A stretch of DNA of 64,000 nucleotides. Source: Candidatus Dadabacteria bacterium (GTDB taxonomy: Bacteria > Desulfobacterota_D > UBA1144 > Nemesobacterales > UBA2774). The stretch lies in contig JADLGH010000094.1 in the NCBI GenBank assembly GCA_020849425.1, positions 5,854-69,853 of the forward strand, written 5' to 3'. Under the pieces are notes generated by a model. It was given only the letters and a program-made list of their open reading frames with translations, was not told where the DNA came from and searched no databases. Numbering within the stretch: position 1 is the first letter of the stretch; every line of letters starts with the position of its first letter. This document shows positions 7,218-56,256 of the stretch, piece after piece. Both the position numbers and the translations under genes were made by a program.

Positions 7218-8789
7218 TCAATTATTCCGGCCGCCACCAGGATACCTGACCTCGTAAATAAAATAGTTTCTCATCTCCCCCGGCATCTCTACCTTCTTCA
7301 CCAGGAAGGAGTTCCTCCGGAATTTCCTGGGCCGGCCGGAGGAAACGATGAGCGTTCCCTCTTCGAGACACTCCGGGTCGTCCATGTCCCGAACGATCTC
7401 CATGTCCGGGCCGCGCGCATAGTAATCGACCAGCTGTAGCTCGTTCCCGAAATGGAGGTTCCCCATGCAGGCGCGCTTATGCCCGTCTTTCAGGCCTTCG
7501 AGCGCGGCGAATATATCCCTGTGCCCGCACTCCCAGGCGCCGCAGGACTGTTTCGGATACTCAAAATAATATTTCTTTGCGAACACCGCCAGCGACGCCA
7601 TAGACGAGACGACTATCAAAACGGCGAGGGCCCGGGAGTATGCGGGCCGCCCGGTCCCCCGGCCGAGCGTCGCGGCGAGTCCCCCCGCCCCGAGGCCGCC
7701 CAGGATGCACAAGAGCGGCGCGCCCGTGAGAGACCTCGTCGCGTGGGGAACGCCGTCGTTCGTCAGCGCCGCCGCCAGCGGGAACACCGCAATCCAGAAG
7801 AGAACGAATGCGGCGCTCTTCCTGTCGAAGCCCGGCCTTAAGAGATACACGAGCCCCGCGAGCACAAGCGGCAGCATTGTCCAGTAAACGGCCCCCGTAT
7901 GCGCTCCGTGCCTGAGGTTAAGATCCCCGTGCGCGAACAGGAAGGAGGGCTTGAAATGGCTTATGTAGTTGTGAAAAAAAATGCCGACGGACCCGGGCGT
8001 CACCCCTTCCGAGAAAGTGAATATCCTGTCCGCCCGGCCGGAGATTAAATGCTCGTTCATGATAGTCAGTATGTGCGGCACGACGAGCGCTCCCGCCACT
8101 ATGGAGCCGCCGAGGAGCACCTTCCATTCGCGGAGAAAGTACCTCCTGTAAATGATCACGAGAGCCGCCAGGAACAAAAATGCATACAGCGGGGCCGCCT
8201 GATACGTGTAGACCGTAATGGAGAACGTCCCGAAAGATAAAACCGTTATCCATTTCTTTCCGCTCCCTATGCCATACACCATCATGTAAACGGCCAGGAG
8301 GAGCGGCGGGAGGAATGCTGCGGGCTCCCACCCGATGCGGGAGTAGTGGATCGACCACGGGATTATAGCCATGAAGAAAGCGGCGAAGAGGGCGGCTCTC
8401 TCGTCCCTGAAGAGCTCGCGCGTAATCAGGTAGACGAGAACGATACAAACGAGGCCGAAGAAGACCGCCGGGGCCCTTATTCCCGGAGCGCCGTCGCCGA
8501 ATATCATGGACGAGACGTAGGCGGAATACCCGTAAACCGGCGGACGCGGCTCGGGCCTGTCGGAAAAGTAGAGCGTCAGGTTCCCGTGGAGGTCGTGCCC
8601 CTTTTCGACGACGCTCCTCGCGGAGACGAAGTTTATAAGCTCGTCCGAAAAGAGCTCGGGCGGGTTTTCGGATATGTCTACAGCCCTCAGAAAAAGCCCG
8701 AGTGCGAGGATAAGCGCGAGTATAACGACCGATGCCCGTGATGCCTTGCGTACCGCCCTATCCAGTGCCGGAACCTCCTCCAAGTCCAT
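7218..8789 (-). CDS. GT39/ArnT-like polytopic membrane glycosyltransferase
   Basis: 523 aa with many predicted TM helices. The N-terminal half resembles the ArnT/PMT (family 39) glycosyltransferase architecture. Called on overall pattern only. Confidence 0.55.
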   Translation of the reverse strand: MDLEEVPALDRAVRKASRASVVILALILALGLFLRAVDISENPPELFSDELINFVSARSVVEKGHDLHGNLTLYFSDRPEPRPPVYGYSAYVSSMIFGDGAPGIRAPAVFFGLVCIVLVYLITRELFRDERAALFAAFFMAIIPWSIHYSRIGWEPAAFLPPLLLAVYMMVYGIGSGKKWITVLSFGTFSITVYTYQAAPLYAFLFLAALVIIYRRYFLREWKVLLGGSIVAGALVVPHILTIMNEHLISGRADRIFTFSEGVTPGSVGIFFHNYISHFKPSFLFAHGDLNLRHGAHTGAVYWTMLPLVLAGLVYLLRPGFDRKSAAFVLFWIAVFPLAAALTNDGVPHATRSLTGAPLLCILGGLGAGGLAATLGRGTGRPAYSRALAVLIVVSSMASLAVFAKKYYFEYPKQSCGAWECGHRDIFAALEGLKDGHKRACMGNLHFGNELQLVDYYARGPDMEIVRDMDDPECLEEGTLIVSSGRPRKFRRNSFLVKKVEMPGEMRNYFIYEVRYPGGGRNN

Positions 8790-8825
8790 CGACGGGTGCG
8801 GGCCTATGAGACTGAAAACCCGCTC

Positions 8826-9749
8826 TTACTCCACGACCGGACTACAGTCGACGTCGTAAACATTCCCATTGATTTCGATTAATCCGACGGGGAGGTGTGC
8901 ACCAATGGTGAGATCTGTAAATGTTCCCTGTACGCTGACCAAACGATTGCCGTCTCTCACTTCTATATCCGAACACTCGATGGATGTGCAGCTTAGCATG
9001 CTGCAGTCCTTACTTTCCAGGGATTTCCATCCAAGATCGAATTGGCAGGTATACGGCTCACAAACATTCTTGAGCGACTCGGCGAGACATCCCGAGCTCG
9101 ACAGGTTGTAGAGCGAATTGCATATCGACTCGACCCGCACGACCTCAACGGGTTTTCCCGTTTTCCCGACGCGCACTATGTGCGACGGATACCCGGGCCC
9201 TGATGCTGGAACGTCGCTGACCGTATCGGCCGTCACGACCACGATAGACGAATCGAATTCCAGGACGGAAACTATTTTTGTCCCGAACCCCGAATAATCC
9301 TGGTAGGAAACGATGACGGTGTTCTCGCTTAAATTCACGGAAGGAAAATTAACGAAGCTGTTGTTTTCGAAATAACAGTTATTTGTGAAACGACTCCAGT
9401 CCTCTCTGGTATTTATGACTATCACGCTCTCGTCCCACCGGCATGCAGGATCGAGATGGGGGAGAAAATAGGAATAGTTTAAGGTTATCAATATCTCCTT
9501 TACGTCCAGCTCGCGCAGGAACCCTGGGGAATTTTCGAGATTCGAGGCGACTTCGTCCGGGGTCTCGCCGCTGACGCGCGACGTATCCACGACGGCGCTC
9601 TCTTCGAAGCAGGGATTCGCGGACTCGGCGGAGAAGCAGATATTAGGCGATTCCTCGATTATAACCTCGCCGTCGCCCCCTCCTCCGCCGCCGTCACAGG
9701 AACCAAAAATAAGCAGGAAAAAAGGCAGAAAAAGTACCCTTCTCATCAC
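8826..9749 (-). CDS. lipoprotein of unknown function, Cys-rich C-terminus
   Basis: Lipobox LIFGSC is followed by a Gly run (DGGGGGGDG). The C-terminal third contains many Cys. The gene is visibly more AT-rich than its neighbours. Confidence 0.6.
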   Translation of the reverse strand: MMRRVLFLPFFLLIFGSCDGGGGGGDGEVIIEESPNICFSAESANPCFEESAVVDTSRVSGETPDEVASNLENSPGFLRELDVKEILITLNYSYFLPHLDPACRWDESVIVINTREDWSRFTNNCYFENNSFVNFPSVNLSENTVIVSYQDYSGFGTKIVSVLEFDSSIVVVTADTVSDVPASGPGYPSHIVRVGKTGKPVEVVRVESICNSLYNLSSSGCLAESLKNVCEPYTCQFDLGWKSLESKDCSMLSCTSIECSDIEVRDGNRLVSVQGTFTDLTIGAHLPVGLIEINGNVYDVDCSPVVE

Positions 9750-9852
9750 AGTCCACCCCCCTGAAGCGTTTATAAATACTTTACCGGCATCTTAAACGGA
9801 TACAAATATAATTAATCAGAGTGGAATTAGATAGAGCGGCAGCGCAGGAAAC

Positions 9853-38968: not shown

Positions 38969-39655
38969 ATGAATTTCGACTTTTTAAAGAATATTGACCT
39001 CCTCTTGATACAGGCCCCGGTGATACTCCTGTCCCTCACCGTGCACGAATACTTCCACGGCTGGACGGCCAACAAGCTCGGCGACCCGACGGCAAAGATG
39101 CAGGGGAGGCTCACCCTCAACCCCATCGCGCACCTCGACATCTTGGGGACCATACTCATGTTCATCGTCGGCTTCGGGTGGGCGAAGCCCGTCCCTATAG
39201 ACCCCCGGAACTTCAAGGACCCGAAGAAGGACACGATTCTCGTCGCGATAGCGGGCCCCCTGTCCAACCTCGTAATGGCGCTCGCGGCGGGGCTCGCGCT
39301 AAGGTACATGATCCCGAAAATGGTCAGCGGCGAGATAAGCTCCGAAGGGATTTATCCCGTAATCGCCATAATACTCATACTGACCCTCGTCTACGGCATA
39401 GCCCTGGCCGTATTCAACATGATCCCGATACCGCCCCTCGACGGCTCGCGCGTTCTTTACGGCGTACTGCCCGCGCGCTACGCCTACGCCTACAGCAGGT
39501 TCGAGCCCTATGGCGTCCTCTTTCTCTTCGCGCTTTTCATATTCGGCGGCGGGGTGTTCAAATACCTGCTCGTCCCGGTCTCCCACCTTACTGTAATGCT
39601 CTCGGGATACAATTACGGCACGCTTTGGGGTATTATAAGTGCGTTGCTGAAATGA
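38969..39655 (+). CDS. site-2 protease family (M50) membrane metalloprotease
   Basis: Has HEYFHGW (HExxH), multiple TM helices, and the second zinc-ligand region NMIPIPPLDGS. Confidence 0.8.
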   Translation: MNFDFLKNIDLLLIQAPVILLSLTVHEYFHGWTANKLGDPTAKMQGRLTLNPIAHLDILGTILMFIVGFGWAKPVPIDPRNFKDPKKDTILVAIAGPLSNLVMALAAGLALRYMIPKMVSGEISSEGIYPVIAIILILTLVYGIALAVFNMIPIPPLDGSRVLYGVLPARYAYAYSRFEPYGVLFLFALFIFGGGVFKYLLVPVSHLTVMLSGYNYGTLWGIISALLK

Positions 39656-44668: not shown

Positions 44669-45346
44669 ATGTTCAAAGGCTGCGGAAGAATTCTACCTAA
44701 AGGGGTGATTGCCATCCTCGCGATTGCGTTGTTCGCCGTAGGCGGCTGCGACGTGGAATTCGGAGGCGGAGGGGGCGACAACGGAGGAGGCGGAGGAGGC
44801 GGGGGGAGCAACACGGAAACCATCCAGGGCTCCATAGTGGACATAATACCGGACGAGCCCCTCGAAGGCATAATCGTAGACGTCTCCGTGGACGGCGTCG
44901 CGCTCGAATCGGGCGTCACGGACGACGACGGATTCTTTTCGGTAGACGGCCCTATTGCCGGAACGGCGCTCCTCGAATTCACGAGTGAAGCGGGAATGCT
45001 CCTCGGGTCGTACGGCGTCGAGATATTCCCCACGGCCCTGGTCGAGCTCGGTGACATCACGCTCGAAAGCGGGGTGGTAAAGCTCGATAATATCTATCCC
45101 GAAGTCACGTTCGACGCCGAGGTAACACAGAACAACTGCACCGGAAACACGGGCTCCATGCAGGTCGAAGCCAGGAACGACCAGGGGACCAGGGTCGCCG
45201 TAGTCCAGATATCGAACTCGACCGACCTCATAATAAACGGCGACGAGGTGGACTGCGAAGATATACTCGTCGGAAGGAACGTCGAGATACAGGGCGATCT
45301 CATTTCCAGCAGCACCGTAGACGCTTTCCGCGTCGAAATCGACTAG
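44669..45346 (+). CDS. lipoprotein with Gly-rich linker and beta-sandwich-like (CarboxypepD_reg-like) region
   Basis: Strong RBS AAGGAGG, lipobox AVGGC, the run GGGGGDNGGGGGGGGSN, then IQGSIVD...GVTDDDGFFSV. Confidence 0.6.
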   Translation: MFKGCGRILPKGVIAILAIALFAVGGCDVEFGGGGGDNGGGGGGGGSNTETIQGSIVDIIPDEPLEGIIVDVSVDGVALESGVTDDDGFFSVDGPIAGTALLEFTSEAGMLLGSYGVEIFPTALVELGDITLESGVVKLDNIYPEVTFDAEVTQNNCTGNTGSMQVEARNDQGTRVAVVQISNSTDLIINGDEVDCEDILVGRNVEIQGDLISSSTVDAFRVEID

Positions 45347-46090: not shown

Positions 46091-46138
46091 TTTTATACAA
46101 TATACAAATACCAGGCAGGTATGACAGGAGCATTGGGC

Positions 46139-47095
46139 ATGACCGGCAAGCCTTATCAGATATGGTTCGATGGTGAGTTTGTCTCGTGGGAAGATGCGCA
46201 GGTACACGTACTGACTCACACGCTACACTACGGCGTTGCGGCCTTCGAGGGGATTCGGGCGTACAGGTGCGCCGGCGAACGCTCTGCCGTGTTCAGGCTT
46301 CCGGAGCACGTGGACAGGCTCTACGCATCGGCGCACATCGCCCATATCGACATCCCCTTTTCCAAGGAAGAGACTCACAACGCAATTATAGAGCTCCTCA
46401 ACATAAACTACCTCGAAGAGGCGTACATACGCCCGATAGCCTATATCGGCGGGGGCAAGATAGGCCTTCATCCGGGCGACAATCCCATACATCTCGCGAT
46501 CGCGGCATACCCGTGGGGGACGTACCTCGGCGAAGGCGCGCTCTCTAAAGGCATAAGCGCCAAGGTTTCCTCCTACACCAGGATGGGCGTAAATTCGTTC
46601 ATGACCAAGGCCAAGCTTAGCGGGAACTACATCAACTCCGTCCTCGCAAAGCTCGAGGCCACCTCCTACGGCTCGGACGAAGCCATTCTCCTCGACAGCG
46701 AGGGCTACGTCGCCGAGGGCTCCGGCGAGAATATATTCATAGTCAGGAACGGCAAGCTTAAAACCCCTCCCCTCACGTCGATACTCGAGGGCATAACCAG
46801 GGATTCCGTCATCAAGATCGCCCGGGACGAGGGCATCGAGGTCGAGGCCGAGCGTTTCACGCGCGACGAGCTCTACATAGCGGACGAGGCATTTTTCACA
46901 GGAACCGCCGCCGAGATAACCCCGATAAGGGAAGTAGACAAGCGCACCATAGGCAAGGGAAAGCCCGGGCCTATAACGAAGAGGCTCCAGTCGAGGTTCT
47001 TCGACATCGTGGAAGGGAAGGACCCGAAATTCATCGACTGGCTCGAATTCTTTTCGGCGGCCCCCCCGCTCAACATAAAGAGCGAGTCCAAGTAG
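46139..47095 (+). CDS. ilvE: branched-chain amino acid aminotransferase
   Basis: Has IWFDGEFVSWEDAQVHVLTHTLHYGVAAFEGIRAY. ATG 46139 has an AGGAG RBS 8 nt upstream. ATG 46121 is an in-frame alternative. Confidence 0.88.
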   Translation: MTGKPYQIWFDGEFVSWEDAQVHVLTHTLHYGVAAFEGIRAYRCAGERSAVFRLPEHVDRLYASAHIAHIDIPFSKEETHNAIIELLNINYLEEAYIRPIAYIGGGKIGLHPGDNPIHLAIAAYPWGTYLGEGALSKGISAKVSSYTRMGVNSFMTKAKLSGNYINSVLAKLEATSYGSDEAILLDSEGYVAEGSGENIFIVRNGKLKTPPLTSILEGITRDSVIKIARDEGIEVEAERFTRDELYIADEAFFTGTAAEITPIREVDKRTIGKGKPGPITKRLQSRFFDIVEGKDPKFIDWLEFFSAAPPLNIKSESK

Positions 47096-47388
47096 CGGAG
47101 CCCGGTTCACTACGCCCGGCCGCAGCCTCAATCTCAAGCCGTAACAGCCGGTTAGGTCCGCTCACGGCTTAACTAATTTTAATATTTCCCCATAATTCAA
47201 TTTTCTCTTGACAGGCAAAATCAGATATTGTAGCTTAGAGCGGTGCACATAGATATCCGGATAAGTGTGTACGGAGTCTGGGCGTCCGGGCCTTCCTTTT
47301 ACATGTGATGAGATCGCCCTTTCATGCCTAACGTCGTGAGAGGGAAGACAGAAAGATTTAAAATCACATCTCACAGGGGGATACACCA

Positions 47389-48330
47389 ATGTCAGTCAGA
47401 TACTTCCTCTTGCTGCTCGCGGCTACATTCGCTATCTCGGTGAAAGCCGGCGCACAGCCCTTCGCATACATAACGAACGAGTCGGACGACACCGTTTCGG
47501 TTATAAATACGGCGACCAATACCGTGGTTGCCACGGTGCCGGTGGGGAACACTCCCTACGGCGTCGCCGTTACCCCCGACGGCGCCCACGTCTACGTGAC
47601 TAATTCCCCTTCGAGCGTGTCCGTCATAAGCGCCGCCTCGAATACGGTGGTTGCCACCGTGCCGGTGGGAAACCTTCCCATTGGAGCCGCGGTTACGCCC
47701 GACGGAGCCCGCGTCTACGTGACTAATCAGGGTTCGGATACCGTATCCGTCATAAGCACCGCCTCGAATACAGTCGTTGCCACGGTGCCGGTGGGTGACC
47801 TTCCCATTGGCGCCGCGGTTACGCCCGACGGAGCCCGCGTCTACGTGACTAATCAGGGTTCGGATAACGTATCCGTCATAAGCACGGCCTCGAATACAGT
47901 GGTTGACACCGTGCCGGTGGGAGTCGGTCCCCAGGGCGTCGCGGTCACGCCCGACGGCGCCTCCGTCTACGTGGCTAATTCGGGTCCAGGCACCGTATCC
48001 GTCATAAGCACCGCCTCGAATACAGTTGTCGCTACGGTGCCGGTGGGAGACGATCCCCAGGGCGTCGCGGTTACCCCCGACGGCGCTTTCGTCTACGTGA
48101 CGGCAGATAACGTATCCGTCATAAACACCGCCTCGAATACAGTCGTTGCCACTGTGCCGGTAGGTAATTCTCCCGTAGCATTTGGCGTTTTCATAGTCCC
48201 CGCTTCCCCCGTGCCGCCGGTGCCGTTCATCAATGTCCCCACCCTGAGCCAGTGGGGGATAACCATACTCGCGGCCCTTTTCGGCGTCTCGGCCGCAGTC
48301 GCGATAAAGAAAAGACGGACGGCGGACTGA
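47389..48330 (+). CDS. YVTN-repeat beta-propeller protein (6 repeats) with IPTL-CTERM-like tail
   Basis: Signal peptide MSVRYFLLLLAATFAISVKAGA, six 42-aa units (..VSVISTASNTVVATVPVG..P.G.AVTPDG..VYVTN..) and the tail NVPTLSQWGITILAALFGVSAAVAIKKRRTAD. Confidence 0.85.
   Translation: MSVRYFLLLLAATFAISVKAGAQPFAYITNESDDTVSVINTATNTVVATVPVGNTPYGVAVTPDGAHVYVTNSPSSVSVISAASNTVVATVPVGNLPIGAAVTPDGARVYVTNQGSDTVSVISTASNTVVATVPVGDLPIGAAVTPDGARVYVTNQGSDNVSVISTASNTVVDTVPVGVGPQGVAVTPDGASVYVANSGPGTVSVISTASNTVVATVPVGDDPQGVAVTPDGAFVYVTADNVSVINTASNTVVATVPVGNSPVAFGVFIVPASPVPPVPFINVPTLSQWGITILAALFGVSAAVAIKKRRTAD
47674..47925 (+). repeat. two adjacent 126-bp (42-codon) blade units that are near-identical
   Basis: 47674-47799 versus 47800-47925 differ at about 9 of 126 positions by manual alignment. 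Confidence 0.85.
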
Positions 48331-48416
48331 CAGGATTCACCCCCGTGCGCCCGGCACGCCGAGTAGTATCGCGAGGGGACGAGGCAGGAAGAGAAGGTCA
48401 CAACTTATCAGGGGGA
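48326..48416 (+). repeat. 91-nt inter-paralogue spacer, copy A
   Basis: Exactly identical to 49500-49590 by manual comparison (ctgacaggattcacccccgtgcgcccggcacgccgagtagtatcgcgaggggacgaggcaggaagagaaggtcacaacttatcagggggat). Confidence 0.9.
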
Positions 48417-48423
48417 TACATCA

Positions 48424-49503
48424 ATGTCAGTCAGATACTTCCTCTTGCTGCTCGCGGCTACATTCGCTATCTCGGTGAAAGCCGGCGCACAGCCCTTCGC
48501 ATATGTAGGGAACTCGTTCGATAACACCGTTTCGGTTATAAATACGGCGACCAATACAGTGGTTGCCACTGTGCCGGTGGGAGACTTTCCAATCGGCGCC
48601 GCAGTTACACCGGACGGCGCCCGCGTATACGTGACTAACCAGGGGGCAAGCAGCGTATCCGTCATAAGCACCGCCTCGAATACAGTGATTGCTACGGTAC
48701 CGGTGGGAAACTCTCCCGAGGGCGTCGCAGTTACACCGGACGGCGCCTTCGTCTACGTGTCTAATAACACATCAAACGACGTATACGTCATTAGCACCGC
48801 CTCCAATACAGTGACTACCACTGTGCCCGTAGGAAGCGGACTCAGGGGCGTCGCGGTCACGCCCGACGGCGCTTTCGTCTACGTGGCTAATCAGTTTTCA
48901 GATAACGTATCCATCATAAGCACAGCCTCGAATACAGTGGTTGACACTGTGCCCGTGGGAACCCTTCCCTATAGCGTCGCAGTCACACCTGACGGCGCCC
49001 GCGTCTACACGGCTAATATTTGTTCAAACGACGTATCCGTCATAAGCACAGCCTCGAATACAGTGACCGACACGGTGCCCGTGGGAGACTTTCCCCAGGG
49101 CATCGCAGTTACACCCGACGGCGCTTTCGTATACGTGACTAATACGTGTGCAAATAGCGTATCCGTCATAAGCGCCGCCACAAATACCGTGATTGACACT
49201 GTGCCGGTGGGAAGCGTTCCCCTTGGCGTCGCTGTTACACCGGACGGCGCTCGCGTATACGTGGCTAATAATACATCAGATAACGTATCCGTCATAAACA
49301 CCGCCTCGAATACTGTGATTGACACTGTGCCGGTAGGAGACAATCCCATAGCGTTCAGCCTTTTCATAGGCCCCGCTCCCTTTGTACCACCGCCACCGGT
49401 CAGCAATATCCCGACCATGAGCCAGTGGGGGGCAATTTGCCTCGCGGCCCTTTTCGGCGTCTCGGCCGCGGTCGCGATGAAGAGAAGGCGGACGGCAGCC
49501 TGA
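48424..49503 (+). CDS. YVTN-repeat beta-propeller protein (7 repeats) with IPTL-CTERM-like tail
   Basis: The first 80 nt are identical to the gene at 47389. Seven 42-aa units. Tail NIPTMSQWGAICLAALFGVSAAVAMKRRRTAA. Confidence 0.85.
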   Translation: MSVRYFLLLLAATFAISVKAGAQPFAYVGNSFDNTVSVINTATNTVVATVPVGDFPIGAAVTPDGARVYVTNQGASSVSVISTASNTVIATVPVGNSPEGVAVTPDGAFVYVSNNTSNDVYVISTASNTVTTTVPVGSGLRGVAVTPDGAFVYVANQFSDNVSIISTASNTVVDTVPVGTLPYSVAVTPDGARVYTANICSNDVSVISTASNTVTDTVPVGDFPQGIAVTPDGAFVYVTNTCANSVSVISAATNTVIDTVPVGSVPLGVAVTPDGARVYVANNTSDNVSVINTASNTVIDTVPVGDNPIAFSLFIGPAPFVPPPPVSNIPTMSQWGAICLAALFGVSAAVAMKRRRTAA

Positions 49504-49590
49504 CAGGATTCACCCCCGTGCGCCCGGCACGCCGAGTAGTATCGCGAGGGGACGAGGCAGGAAGAGAAGGTCACAACTTATCAGGGGGAT
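49500..49590 (+). repeat. 91-nt inter-paralogue spacer, copy B
   Basis: Identical to 48326-48416. A degenerate partial copy follows the third gene (about 50671-50700). Confidence 0.9.
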
Positions 49591-49595
49591 TCGGA

Positions 49596-50672
49596 ATGCC
49601 GGTCAGATATTTACTCTTGCTGCTCGCGGCTATATCCGCTATCTCGGCGGAAGCCGGCGCACAGCCGTTCGCATACATAACGAATGGGGTTGACGACACC
49701 GTTTCGGTTATAGATACAGGGACCAACACCGTGGTTGCCACAGTGCCGGTAGGAGTCGGCCCCCAGGGCGTCGCGATTACCCCCGACGGCGCTTTCGTCT
49801 ACGTGACCAATCTCTTCTCGGATAACGTATCCGTCATAAGCGCCGCCTCGAATTCGGTCGTTGCCGCCGTGCCGGTGGGAGACGCTCCCGGGGGCGTCGC
49901 TGTTACCCCCGACGGCGCACGCGTCTACGTGGCTAATGCGGATTCAGACGACGTATCCGTTATAAGCACGGCCTCGAATACAGTCATCGCCGCCGTGCCG
50001 GTGGGAGACTTCCCGATCGGCGTCGCCGTTACCCCCGACGGAGCCCGCGTCTACGTGGCCAACCAGGGTTCGGATAACGTATCCGTCATAAGCACGGCCT
50101 CGAATGCAGTCGTCGCCGCCGTGCCGGTGGGAAGCCTCCCGATCGGCGTCGCGGTCACGCCCGGCGGCGACCGCGTCTATGTGACCAACCTCTTCTCGGA
50201 TAACGTATCCGTCATAAGCACAGCCTCGAATACGGTCATCGCCGCCGTGCCGGTGGGGAACTTTCCCATCGGCGTCGCTGTCACCCCTGACGGCGCCCGT
50301 GTCTACGTGGCTAATGCGGATACAGATACAGTATCCGTCATAAGCACAGCCTCGAATACAGTCATTGCCACGGTACCGGCGGGAGACCTGCCCGACGGCG
50401 TCGCGGTCACCCCCGACGGCGACCGCGTCTACGCGGCTAACCAGGGCTCGAATAACGTATCCGTCATAAGCACCGCCTCGAATACTGTCATCGACACCGT
50501 GCCGGTGGGAAACGGTCCCATAGCATTCGGCATTTTCATAGGCCCCGTGCCGCCGGTGCCGCCGCTACCGGTCGCCGACATCCCTACACTGAGCCAGTGG
50601 GGGGCAATTATACTCGCGGCCCTTTTCGGCGTCTCGGCCGCAGTCGCATTGAGGAAAAGGCGGGCGGCATAA
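49596..50672 (+). CDS. YVTN-repeat beta-propeller protein (7 repeats) with IPTL-CTERM-like tail
   Basis: The ORF-track frame opens at 49425 inside the previous gene. ATG 49596 gives a signal peptide MPVRYLLLLLAAISAISAEAGA parallel to the other two. Tail DIPTLSQWGAIILAALFGVSAAVALRKRRAA. Confidence 0.85.
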   Translation: MPVRYLLLLLAAISAISAEAGAQPFAYITNGVDDTVSVIDTGTNTVVATVPVGVGPQGVAITPDGAFVYVTNLFSDNVSVISAASNSVVAAVPVGDAPGGVAVTPDGARVYVANADSDDVSVISTASNTVIAAVPVGDFPIGVAVTPDGARVYVANQGSDNVSVISTASNAVVAAVPVGSLPIGVAVTPGGDRVYVTNLFSDNVSVISTASNTVIAAVPVGNFPIGVAVTPDGARVYVANADTDTVSVISTASNTVIATVPAGDLPDGVAVTPDGDRVYAANQGSNNVSVISTASNTVIDTVPVGNGPIAFGIFIGPVPPVPPLPVADIPTLSQWGAIILAALFGVSAAVALRKRRAA

Positions 50673-50776
50673 CAGGTTCACGCCGGCGCGCCCGGCAACA
50701 AAACCGGACATGACGGACAGCACCTGCTTTGAGCCCGGAAAACCCCGCCGGGGAGAAGCCGCCCGGATTCGGGCGC

Positions 50777-52417
50777 TCACCTTATATCGATCCTGTATGG
50801 CATGACCGCAAAGAAGCTTTCCCGCGTAAGTGTCTCCGCGAGGTCCATAAGAAACGCGGCCCGGCCCGAGAATGCGCCGGCCCCGTAAAGCGAAGCCGGT
50901 CTGAGCCCCCTGTCGACGGAATAATACTTTACGTGGGGTCTCTTCTTCCCGTCCCCGATTCCTGCTTCTTCGGAAGCGAGCTCTATGGCGTCGTGAAGGC
51001 CGCCGAGCTCGTCGACGAGGCCGAGCTCCTTTGCCTGCGCCCCCGTCCACACCCTCCCCCCCGCCGCCGATTCGGCCCGGTCCCTGTCCATATTCCTGTC
51101 CCCGGAAACGGAATCGACGAAGGCGTCGTAGTAAATCCGGAGCATCTCGTCGAGCCTTTTCTCCTCGTCCTCCGTAAACCCCCTCGCCGAAGAGTACATG
51201 AGGGAGTGTTTCGAGGACGGCATCAGCTCGGTGCTGATTCCGAGCTTTTTCCTGAGCCCGCTCACGTCGAACTTCCCGTATACGATGCCTATGGAGCCCG
51301 TGAGCGTCATGGGGTCGGCCAGGATGGAGCGCGCGCCCAGGGAAACGAGATATCCTCCCGACGCCGCGACGTCCGACATGGAAACGACGACGGGCATCTT
51401 CTCGGACACGCGCTTCAGCTCCTCCCTTATCACGTCCGAAGCGATGCCGGACCCGCCCGGCGAGGATATCCTGAGGACGAGCGCCCTTACGCTTTTATCC
51501 TTCGATATCCGCCCGAGGAGCTTCAAGACGGGGCCGGAGCGGATGGTCTTCATGCCCGGGCCCCTTCCGGAGCCGCCCGTTATCGCACCCGTACACGCCA
51601 GGACGGCGACAATCGGCGGAGAGCCGGTGAATACCCTTCCAAAACCTGAAAGTTTTTCTTTAAGTTTTAAATATCTATTGTATCTACGAGCGCTTATCGC
51701 GTGTACTTCAAGCCCCGCCTCATCCCCCGTCCTGTCCCTTATATCGCCTTCATACGCAACTCCGTCGATAAGATTCTCCGCGACAGCCTCTTTGGCGGTA
51801 TAGGGCGCGCGGTCTATCTTCTCCTTTACCTCGCCGGGGCTCATGCCCCGCCCCTCGGCTACGGCGCGTTCGAGCCCGTCCGAAAGACTCCCCAGTATGG
51901 ATTCCATCATCTCCCTGTGCGCGGGGGACATGGAATCCCTCGTGAACGTATCCCTGGCACTCTTGTACTCGCCGAGCCCCTTGATTCGGGCGTCTATGCC
52001 GAGCTTGGACAGGGTGTCCTTAAAGAACGAGACCTCCGCGGCAAGGCCGACGAGATTAAGCGTCGCCCACGGTGAGACGTAGATTTTATCCCCGATCGAG
52101 GCCGGCAGGTACTCGACATTCCCGCAGTCTTCGAGGTATACGATTATTTTCTTGCCGGCGGCTTTCAATTCGGCGAGATGCCCTCTTATGGAATTCGCCC
52201 GGCCGATTCCTATATTGAGCGTCTTTATGCGGAGTATCACGCCGCGTATATTCTCCGCCTGCCCGGCCCCGGCGAGCACGCGCTCCACATCGCCCATGGA
52301 AAGCGGGGGCTCCCCGCCTATAAAGCCGAGCATCTTTTTACCGGGCTCGTCGGGGATGTCGCCCGAGAGCTCGAGGTCTAAAAAGTTATAGCGTCCCAAG
52401 GGACTCAAAGGATTCAT
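50777..52417 (-). CDS. sppA: signal peptide peptidase SppA, 67K (two-domain) type
   Basis: 546 aa with two ClpP/crotonase-like halves. Has SPGGS and the ASGGY serine context. Confidence 0.8.
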   Translation of the reverse strand: MNPLSPLGRYNFLDLELSGDIPDEPGKKMLGFIGGEPPLSMGDVERVLAGAGQAENIRGVILRIKTLNIGIGRANSIRGHLAELKAAGKKIIVYLEDCGNVEYLPASIGDKIYVSPWATLNLVGLAAEVSFFKDTLSKLGIDARIKGLGEYKSARDTFTRDSMSPAHREMMESILGSLSDGLERAVAEGRGMSPGEVKEKIDRAPYTAKEAVAENLIDGVAYEGDIRDRTGDEAGLEVHAISARRYNRYLKLKEKLSGFGRVFTGSPPIVAVLACTGAITGGSGRGPGMKTIRSGPVLKLLGRISKDKSVRALVLRISSPGGSGIASDVIREELKRVSEKMPVVVSMSDVAASGGYLVSLGARSILADPMTLTGSIGIVYGKFDVSGLRKKLGISTELMPSSKHSLMYSSARGFTEDEEKRLDEMLRIYYDAFVDSVSGDRNMDRDRAESAAGGRVWTGAQAKELGLVDELGGLHDAIELASEEAGIGDGKKRPHVKYYSVDRGLRPASLYGAGAFSGRAAFLMDLAETLTRESFFAVMPYRIDIR

Positions 52418-54679: not shown

Positions 54680-55744
54680 ATGCCCGGAATAGTATCTGCA
54701 GGGACCAGCGACGCTCCTCATGCGTACTCGCAGACGGAGCTCAAGGGGCTTGCGCGCGCGCTCTTTCTCAAAAAGGGCCGGGATTTCGGAAGGCTCCTCG
54801 ATGTTTTCGACAACTCCCTTATAGATTCCCGCCATTTCATAAATTCGGCCGAGTGGTTCGAAACCCCCAAGAGCTTTAAGGAAAGGTCGGTATCCTACGC
54901 CGAAAACGTGGCCGCGCTGTCGATTCCGGCCATAAAAGCCTGCGTCGAAAGCGCGGAGGCGGACTACGGCGACTTCGATCACATAATCTTCGTGACGAGC
55001 ACCGGCATCTCCGCCCCCTCGGCAGACGCGCTCATACTGAATCAGCTCGGCCTCGACAGGCACGTCAGGCGAACCCCCGTATGGGGGCTCGGGTGCGCGG
55101 GCGGGGCCGCGGGCATGAGCAGGGCGTTCGAGTACGCCAGGGCTTTTCCCGAAAGCGCCGTCCTTCTCGTGTCGGCCGAGATGTGCAGCCTCGCCTTTCA
55201 CGACGACGATTACTCGAAGAGTAACGTCGTCTCGCTCGCCCTCTTTTCGGACGGTGCGGCCGCGGTGCTCGTGGCGGGCGAAAAACACAGGCTCTACGGC
55301 AAGGCCAGGGTGCGCATGACCGGCGCCCTTTCGACCACATGGCCCGACACGCTCGGCATTATGGGCTGGGAGGTGGTGGACGACGGCCTTCGCGCCATAT
55401 TCAGTAAAGAGATACCGAACATCGTCAGAGAGAGGATCGGCGAGAACATAGACGAGCTCCTGGGTCCGCGCGGGCTTTCCACGTCCGGCCTCGGGCATTT
55501 TGCCGTGCACCCCGGCGGGCCGAAGGTGCTCAGCGAATACGAGGCGGCGCTCGGGCTCGAAGAAGGCGCGTTCGGATATTCGAGGAAGGTCCTCCGCGAG
55601 CACGGCAACATGTCGTCCCCGACCGTACTCTACGTCTTAAAAGAGGTCCTCGACGGGGAAGATTTCGGGGAGAACGAGCACGGCATTATCTCGGCCCTCG
55701 GGCCCGGGTTCAGCTCGGAGCTCGTCCTGTTCGAATCCGCATGA
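54680..55744 (+). CDS. type III polyketide synthase (chalcone/stilbene synthase family)
   Basis: Catalytic Cys context WGLGCAGGAAG, His in FAVHPGGPKVL and Asn in HGNMSSPTVLYVL. 354 aa. Confidence 0.85.
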   Translation: MPGIVSAGTSDAPHAYSQTELKGLARALFLKKGRDFGRLLDVFDNSLIDSRHFINSAEWFETPKSFKERSVSYAENVAALSIPAIKACVESAEADYGDFDHIIFVTSTGISAPSADALILNQLGLDRHVRRTPVWGLGCAGGAAGMSRAFEYARAFPESAVLLVSAEMCSLAFHDDDYSKSNVVSLALFSDGAAAVLVAGEKHRLYGKARVRMTGALSTTWPDTLGIMGWEVVDDGLRAIFSKEIPNIVRERIGENIDELLGPRGLSTSGLGHFAVHPGGPKVLSEYEAALGLEEGAFGYSRKVLREHGNMSSPTVLYVLKEVLDGEDFGENEHGIISALGPGFSSELVLFESA

Positions 55745-56256
55745 AGATATTCCTCCTCTTTCTCATACTCATAGTCCTCCAGCGGCTCGGCGAGCTCGCG
55801 CTCGCGAAGAGGAACGAAAAGATTCTAAGAAGCGAAGGGGCGGTCGAATACGACGCCGGCGGCTACAGGGTCATCGTCCTCATGCACGCGGCCTTTCTCG
55901 TATCCTTCACCGCCGAGTACTTCCTATTCGGAAGGTCACTCTCTCCCTACTGGCTCCCGCTCCTCTGCGTTTTCGTCGCGGCGCAGCTCCTCCGGTACTG
56001 GGCAATACGGAGCCTCGGCAAGTTCTGGAACACGAGGATTCTGATCGTCCCCGGCGAAAGGCTGGTAACAAAGGGCCCCTATAGATACCTCGTGCATCCC
56101 AACTATATATCGGTAGTGATAGAAATCGCCGTCATACCGCTTATCTTCTCGTGCTACATCACGGCAGCGGTATTCACCTTGCTTAACCTGCTCGCCCTCA
56201 GAAGGCGTATACGTATAGAAGAGAGCGCCCTTTCGAAACTCGAAAAACCTTTATAA
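55741..56256 (+). CDS. isoprenylcysteine carboxyl methyltransferase (ICMT) family membrane methyltransferase, BpsB-like
   Basis: 171 aa polytopic protein with VTKGPYRYLVHPNYISVVIE. The ATG overlaps the PKS stop (ATGA). Confidence 0.8.
   Translation: MKIFLLFLILIVLQRLGELALAKRNEKILRSEGAVEYDAGGYRVIVLMHAAFLVSFTAEYFLFGRSLSPYWLPLLCVFVAAQLLRYWAIRSLGKFWNTRILIVPGERLVTKGPYRYLVHPNYISVVIEIAVIPLIFSCYITAAVFTLLNLLALRRRIRIEESALSKLEKPL

Follow-up and report, generated by a model that had tools for sequence, protein, structure and literature searches.

The locus described here raises the question of what kind of protein three tandem genes of a Candidatus Dadabacteria bacterium encode, and which machinery would act on the tails in which their products end. 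The genes, here g1, g2 and g3, lie in a stretch of 64,000 nucleotides (nt) of contig JADLGH010000094.1, the whole of which is referred to as the window, between ilvE, which encodes a branched-chain aminotransferase, and a convergent gene for a two-domain SppA (Table 1; coordinates count from the first letter of the window). We consider that they probably form a strain-variable array of exported YVTN propellers, of the substrate type for sorting by the IPTLxxWG-CTERM/exosortase H (XrtH) system. Overall, this is a real and fairly ordinary surface-protein family, the copy number of which varies between close relatives.

YVTN propellers and their C-terminal tails

An earlier, sequence-only reading of the window had described three same-strand genes of 313, 359 and 358 amino acids (aa) with six, seven and seven beta-propeller repeats, and both the open reading frames (ORFs) and the NCBIfam model TIGR02276 confirm that description. 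TIGR02276 delineates six YVTN stretches in g1 (E = 6e-74), seven in g2 (8e-90) and seven in g3 (2e-91), with a period of exactly 42 aa. With scores of 244–300 bits, far above the cutoff of 27.85, all three proteins belong to the YVTN repeat family, to which they had been ascribed.

The AlphaFold2 model of g3 (predicted local distance difference test, pLDDT, 89.6; predicted template modelling score, pTM, 0.82) has 28 strands, corresponding to seven blades of four, and that of g1 (pLDDT 85.4, pTM 0.77) has 23; in both, the tail is a linker of low confidence that leads into a helix. The best match of both models in the PDB, as found by Foldseek, is 1l0q_A. For g3, the superposition gives a template modelling (TM) score of 0.80 and a root-mean-square deviation of 2.3 Å, with 49% identity over 302 columns, and for g1 a TM score of 0.65 and a deviation of 5.0 Å, the weaker fit being as expected if one blade is missing. 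The models thus predict a six-bladed propeller for g1 and a seven-bladed one for g3, with a fold like that of 1l0q, and the repeat count suggests seven blades for g2, which agrees with the difference in blade number that had been anticipated. To judge from its repeats, g1 is a seven-blade gene that has lost one unit. The YVTN domain of the Methanosarcina mazei surface-layer (S-layer) protein, from which 1l0q derives, is likewise seven-bladed, made of 42-aa units and part of an extracellular protein; in contrast to g1–g3, the M. mazei protein runs on into PKD domains and has another type of C-terminal anchoring, and g1 has only six blades. Among the 15 full units, variation is concentrated in the VG-xx-P-x-G loop (positions 20, 21 and 23) and in the N-xx-SD loop (positions 39–42 and 1). 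The presence of two variable loops per blade is consistent with paralogues that differ in binding.

The C-termini read exactly as had been described, with a Pro-rich linker, a motif, a hydrophobic segment and a basic cluster. The motif is NVPTLSQWG in g1, NIPTMSQWG in g2 and DIPTLSQWG in g3, and the transmembrane segment that follows it ends in KKRRTAD, KRRRTAA and RKRRAA, respectively. The assignment of these tails to the IPTL-CTERM domain stands, given that all three pass the cutoff of the NCBIfam model TIGR04174 (22.7, 21.4 and 23.8 bits for g1, g2 and g3 against 20.5). In the case of PF18203, with a cutoff of 20.8, g1 and g3 score 24.9 and 24.6, and g2, the IPTM variant, fails in this Pfam model only, with 17.2. 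The tail matches stop 2–10 residues short of the stop codon. Helices are predicted at residues 288–312 of g1 and 332–355 of g3, and an N-terminal helix at residues 3–16 accords with a signal peptide that was judged by eye (R4, a hydrophobic core and AGA/Q). A six-frame motif scan of the 64 kb found just these three such tails in the window.

Known IPTL-CTERM proteins (TIGR04174/PF18203), for which exosortase H is the predicted enzyme, share with g1–g3 the IPTLxxWG motif, the hydrophobic helix, the basic cluster and the N-terminal signal peptide; g1–g3 differ from them in the Dadabacteria lineage of the host, in the SQWG variant of the motif and in the IPTM of g2. The combination of YVTN repeats with an IPTL-CTERM tail is already present in a metagenome-assembled genome (MAG) of Casimicrobiaceae, in a protein (P0077) that NCBI names 'IPTL-CTERM sorting domain-containing protein', and three further proteins (P0015, P0086 and P0098) have the same build. 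The S-layer protein mela_00855 of Methylomirabilis lanthanidiphila, which has a signal peptide and a predicted IPTL-CTERM, has been experimentally localised to the S-layer (PMC8671808). This protein is likened to g1–g3 by description only, and the likeness does not imply that the Dadabacteria proteins form a lattice.

Exosortase H and the fate of the tail

PEP-CTERM proteins with exosortase A, and PGF-CTERM proteins with archaeosortase A, combine a Sec signal, a C-terminus of motif, transmembrane segment and basic cluster, and a polytopic transpeptidase with catalytic Cys, Arg and His. The same logic is seen in g1–g3, although the systems differ in signature motif and in the sortase subfamily dedicated to it, and the three genes have neither an exopolysaccharide (EPS) locus nor a sortase linked to them.

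Several lines of evidence associate this class of motif with XrtH. A tail profile scanned over 185,579 species-representative genomes returned 39 loci in several phyla, and in four of them (L023, L033, L036 and L053) an XrtH ORF lies within ~1 kb of an IPTLSQWG-type motif. Against the cutoff of 86 bits of TIGR04177 ('exosortase H'), the ORF of L023 (Pirellulales) scores 87.6, and those of L033 and L036 (both Chitinophagales) 84.2 and 66.8; that of L053 (Bacteroidales) was found with a purpose-built hidden Markov model (HMM). Cys, Arg and His residues are invariant among the four ORFs in an alignment. JGI labels the homologues of these ORFs 'exosortase H (IPTLxxWG-CTERM-specific)', and NCBI uses the name 'exosortase H'. 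Taken together, the TIGR04177 model, the names of the homologues and the adjacent XrtH genes indicate that the motif class goes with XrtH, and that the cognate enzyme class has already been assigned by curated comparative genomics. The idea that the IPTL sorting machinery is unknown must therefore be given up, since bioinformatics has already paired it with exosortase H. The further suggestion of the sequence-only reading, that no processing enzyme had been experimentally assigned, holds: literature searches for XrtH or exosortase H, or for Dadabacteria with exosortase, gave nothing relevant.

The tails of g1–g3 also match NF033207, 'midcut-by-XrtH protein', at 25.1, 26.1 and 28.8 bits against a cutoff of 45, at profile positions 31–65 only, that is, over the tail alone. 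Membership of that family was rejected, the match being sub-threshold and reflecting the shared motif only; even so, it points to exosortase H. A 'midcut' type of substrate was observed in Chitinophagales, in which an IPTLSQWG-like motif and helix stand mid-protein, with further hydrophobic segments behind them (L033, 8501–10354; L036, 9185–10348; L045, 7250–10345). The gene with the mid-protein motif directly adjoins XrtH in L033 and L036.

In MAGs of Dadabacteria and Thermodesulfobacteriota, NVPTLSQWGLIAMAG...RRRK tails are carried by diverse passengers, including another YVTN propeller of 358 aa and a PD40-like repeat protein, and a narrow pattern finds 2–4 tail loci in each Dadabacteria-like MAG. 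A metagenome scan with the Dadabacteria tail type gave 422 confirmed matches, from which 113 tail-bearing ORFs in 87 loci were kept. The recurrence of one motif on more than 100 unrelated passenger domains, both in Dadabacteria-like genomes and in others, speaks against an ordinary anchor and, as had been proposed, for a true class of sorting signals, which these tails appear to be. In one metagenome alone, Ga0209633, NVPTLSQWGLIAMAG-type tails are found on more than 25 contigs (among L054–L133), which suggests organisms with very many IPTL-tailed proteins. A tail-only profile run against 5.8 billion proteins returned only two 39-aa fragments of this locus at contig ends, and tblastn against plasmids returned generic YVTN proteins only and no lead to XrtH.

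On the reading that we prefer, one promoter upstream of g1 would drive a three-gene operon, and each product would be exported by Sec, its signal peptide being cut after AGA. The C-terminal helix would then keep the protein in the inner membrane for a time, the basic cluster lying on the cytoplasmic side, until a Cys/Arg/His transpeptidase of the exosortase family cuts at IPTLSQWG; this enzyme is expected to be an XrtH with its gene at another place in the genome. The propeller would be released or attached to an acceptor in the cell envelope, and the six- and seven-bladed propellers, with their paralogue-specific loops, may be displayed on the surface, where they would differ in specificity as binding or structural modules. 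IPTL-CTERM-type signals are in this way placed in the little-studied Dadabacteria and, by inference, the exosortase H system with them.

Several observations weigh against this proposal. The 64-kb window contains no exosortase, and a search HMM built from 120 XrtH sequences found none in the ~0.6 Mb that flank ~95 Dadabacteria-type tails, so that an XrtH in this lineage is an assumption on our part. With the scan patterns used, the high-GC sub-lineage of the window yields tails only at this locus (L006, L014 and L015), and g2 lies below the Pfam threshold. Experimental proof of cleavage by XrtH was not found in the searchable literature, and operon structure, cleavage of the signal peptide and surface location are what we infer.

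The failure to find an exosortase in the window or near the Dadabacteria-type tails, and the single tail locus of the sub-lineage, would also suit a plain C-terminal membrane anchor, by which the propellers, once exported by Sec, stay uncleaved and bound by their helix to the outer side of the cytoplasmic membrane, and the helix and basic cluster do obey the positive-inside rule. However, (I/V)PT(L/M)SQWG is conserved just before the helix across phyla and on unrelated passengers, which an anchor would not need, and the same class of motif adjoins XrtH genes elsewhere. Such an anchor seems to us rather unlikely, and the XrtH substrate type the better account of the tail.

Because no exosortase was found in the flanks of the ~95 tails, it is conceivable, though with a slim chance of being right, that Dadabacteria and related Thermodesulfobacteriota lack XrtH and that an undescribed membrane enzyme processes IPTLSQWG tails. 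If this were true, the variable YVTN array would belong to a surface layer anchored by an unknown chemistry. In a more general form, some other membrane protease (SppA, the short M50 peptidase nearby or one not yet described) would process the tail in Dadabacteria instead of XrtH. SppA is convergent and adjacent to the array, a 228-aa M50 peptidase is encoded 8 kb upstream, and no XrtH was seen in the ~0.6 Mb mentioned above. Nevertheless, the gene order GT4, lipoprotein-like gene, phaR, ilvE, SppA and pepA, with the short M50 gene upstream, is kept in relatives with or without YVTN genes, including L010–L013, which have none. The adjacency is therefore uninformative on tail processing and is ancestral synteny, which bears out the caution of the sequence-only reading that adjacency of SppA was no evidence of a link.

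On the same ground, both candidates were rejected: SppA does not co-occur with the YVTN genes, having the same position in the relatives that lack them, and the M50 gene is also present there, so that neither travels with the array. Clustering of all neighbours found no membrane protein that recurs beside Dadabacteria-type tails, and the membrane ORFs that do lie beside such tails were discarded as sortases, since they are a PAP2 protein (L037) and a VTT/DedA protein and an ion channel (L017). Moreover, most substrates in other phyla are also not beside a sortase, XrtH being near only 4 of the 39 loci. Processing by another protease is thus very unlikely, and XrtH remains the enzyme to be expected. 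With no candidate processing enzyme travelling with the genes, the locus is not the good handle on the sorting enzyme that it had been taken for; nor does it open the question of that enzyme, the cognate exosortase being already in curated models. What is new is the range of zero to three copies, treated below, and the large number of IPTL-type tails in Dadabacteria-like genomes, with no exosortase seen close by.

Origin, copy number and divergence of the array

The DNA that surrounds the three genes suggests how they came to stand in tandem. Upstream of g1, a stretch of 293 nt shares ~95% identity with the DNA 5' of the single gene of a relative, L006. A promoter-like element, TTGACA with a 17-nt spacer and TAGCTT/TATTTT, is kept in the window, in L006 and in L015 (in the TATTTT form in the latter), and is followed by a 5' leader of ~190 nt that ends in the ribosome-binding site GGGGGA. 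This control region is absent from L010–L013, and Rfam has no match in the conserved 293-nt leader region. The two internal spacers are identical over their first 87 nt. Each consists of ~25 nt of a 3' flank like that of g3 and ~55 nt that resemble the last part of the 5' leader, GGGGGA ribosome-binding site included, and neither has promoter-like or terminator-like sites. The 3' flank of g3 matches that of the L006 gene. Since the spacers are junctions of 3' flank and 5' leader, and the outer flanks match those of the single-copy L006, the array arose by tandem duplication of the whole gene. The TTGACA element upstream of g1 is presumably the promoter, and a single promoter driving a three-gene operon would be the likeliest arrangement.

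Exact-sequence look-ups of the three proteins gave no match. The product of ilvE clusters, at 90% identity or more, with proteins named Candidatus Dadabacteria or Thermodesulfobacteriota MAG, and relatives were compared through fetched ilvE neighbourhoods. Between ilvE and SppA, L010–L013 have no YVTN gene, SppA following 65 base pairs past ilvE; L006, on a 788-kb contig, has one gene, of 359 aa; L015 has two, listed as 360 and 362 aa; and the window has three. Copy number does not track relatedness: ilvE of L010 (no copies) is 97% identical to that of the window, ilvE of L006 (one copy) 99% and ilvE of L015 (two copies) 92%. It follows that close relatives differ by gain, expansion and loss of the array. 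The copy next to SppA, of the g3 type, is present in every relative that carries the locus. A likely surface-protein family that varies between strains, from zero to three copies, is of interest because such families serve as useful markers of diversity in the cell envelope and of selection acting on the surface.

At the protein level, g3 shares 91% identity with the L006 gene and 86% with L015b, one of the two copies of L015, as compared with 72–76% with g1 and g2. For its part, g1 is 84% identical to L015a, the ilvE-proximal copy of L015, and g2 is 72–77% identical to every other copy. The repeat units of g3 find their best match in the same-numbered unit of L006 or L015b, and not in their neighbours within the gene, on which ground intragenic concerted evolution was rejected. 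On the other hand, the coding starts of g1 and g2, which encode the signal peptide, are identical in DNA, and the last repeat units of L015a and L015b are 100% identical. Homogenisation is thus confined to the gene ends, that is, to the spacers, the coding start and the tail, with cores that keep positional orthology. The concerted evolution that had been proposed for the family as a whole is in this way upheld at the gene ends and contradicted in the propeller cores, where g3 is nearer to its orthologues than to g1 and g2.

The ratio of nonsynonymous to synonymous substitution (dN/dS) is 0.21–0.22 between orthologues (g3) and 0.33–0.54 between paralogues; by gene, it is 0.34 for g1 and 0.33–0.54 for g2. 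Given this range of 0.21–0.54, all copies are under purifying selection and there is no pseudogene among them.

That the three copies are strain variants of a single-copy gene, chained together during metagenome assembly, is highly improbable. In its favour are the MAG-type nature of the source contig, the short-read Logan contigs, every one of which stops at the first YVTN gene or a little way into it, and the 87 nt that both spacers share. Against it, an independent assembly, L015, has two tandem copies in the same layout that pair with g1 and g3 at the identities given above, the copies differ by 23–28% in protein as against only 1–15% for flanking genes between genomes, the spacer is a proper duplication junction, and g1 differs in blade number. 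We therefore regard the array as real.

The short-read contigs in question are the ilvE-bearing ones (L001–L005 and L007–L009), which end 90–321 nt past ilvE in the lineage of the window and 355–520 nt past it in the lineage of L006. YVTN repeats break k-mer assemblies, and copy numbers taken from short-read MAGs are thus lower bounds. The contig of L015 (CAZUDM010000013.1), titled 'uncultured Spirochaetia bacterium', is syntenic with the window at 81–92% aa identity and probably comes from a mislabelled bin.

Gene layout and neighbouring genes

The features of the array and of its surroundings are collected in Table 1. Homology to L006 and L015, together with the ribosome-binding site GGGGGA, backs the ATG listed there as the start of g3. 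A mechanical ORF list instead starts g3 at GTG 49425, giving 415 aa and an overlap with the tail of g2; this start was rejected, as 49425–49595 is duplicated, non-coding spacer. Similar read-through frames behind g1 and g2 likewise derive from the duplicated spacer and are non-coding.

Table 1. Positions of the array and of nearby features in the window
Feature	Position	Strand	Description
Membrane Peptidase_M50 gene	38969..39655		228 aa; between a xerC-like gene and scpA/scpB
Lipoprotein-like ORF	44669..45346		225 aa; long poly-Gly tract
ilvE	46121..47095		branched-chain aminotransferase
Upstream control region	47096..47388	+	promoter-like element and 5' leader, by likeness to L006/L015
g1	47389..48330	+	313 aa; 6 YVTN repeats, Pro-rich linker, IPTL-CTERM tail
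g1-g2 spacer	48331..48423	+	duplication junction, 93 nt
g2	48424..49503	+	359 aa; 7 YVTN repeats, IPTM tail variant; most divergent copy
g2-g3 spacer	49504..49595	+	second duplication junction, 92 nt
g3	49596..50672	+	358 aa; predicted 7-bladed YVTN propeller, IPTL-CTERM tail; SppA-proximal copy
3' flank of array	50673..50776	+	up to the convergent SppA stop codon; orthologous to the L006 3' flank
SppA gene	50777..52417		two-domain SppA, convergent
Polyketide synthase and methyltransferase genes	54680..56256		type III polyketide synthase (354 aa), then membrane methyltransferase (171 aa)

In L013, a two-gene insertion lies between phaR and ilvE (7369–9829 of that contig) and encodes a protein of 595 aa with no family match and an NspV-like protein of 226 aa. 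The lipoprotein-like ORF upstream of ilvE has no NCBIfam match and is 84–93% conserved in the relatives. Beyond SppA, the type III polyketide synthase is DpgA/chalcone-synthase-like, and the methyltransferase that follows it is of the ICMT/PEMT type; this pair is kept in all relatives and looks like a biosynthetic pair of the phenolic-lipid type.

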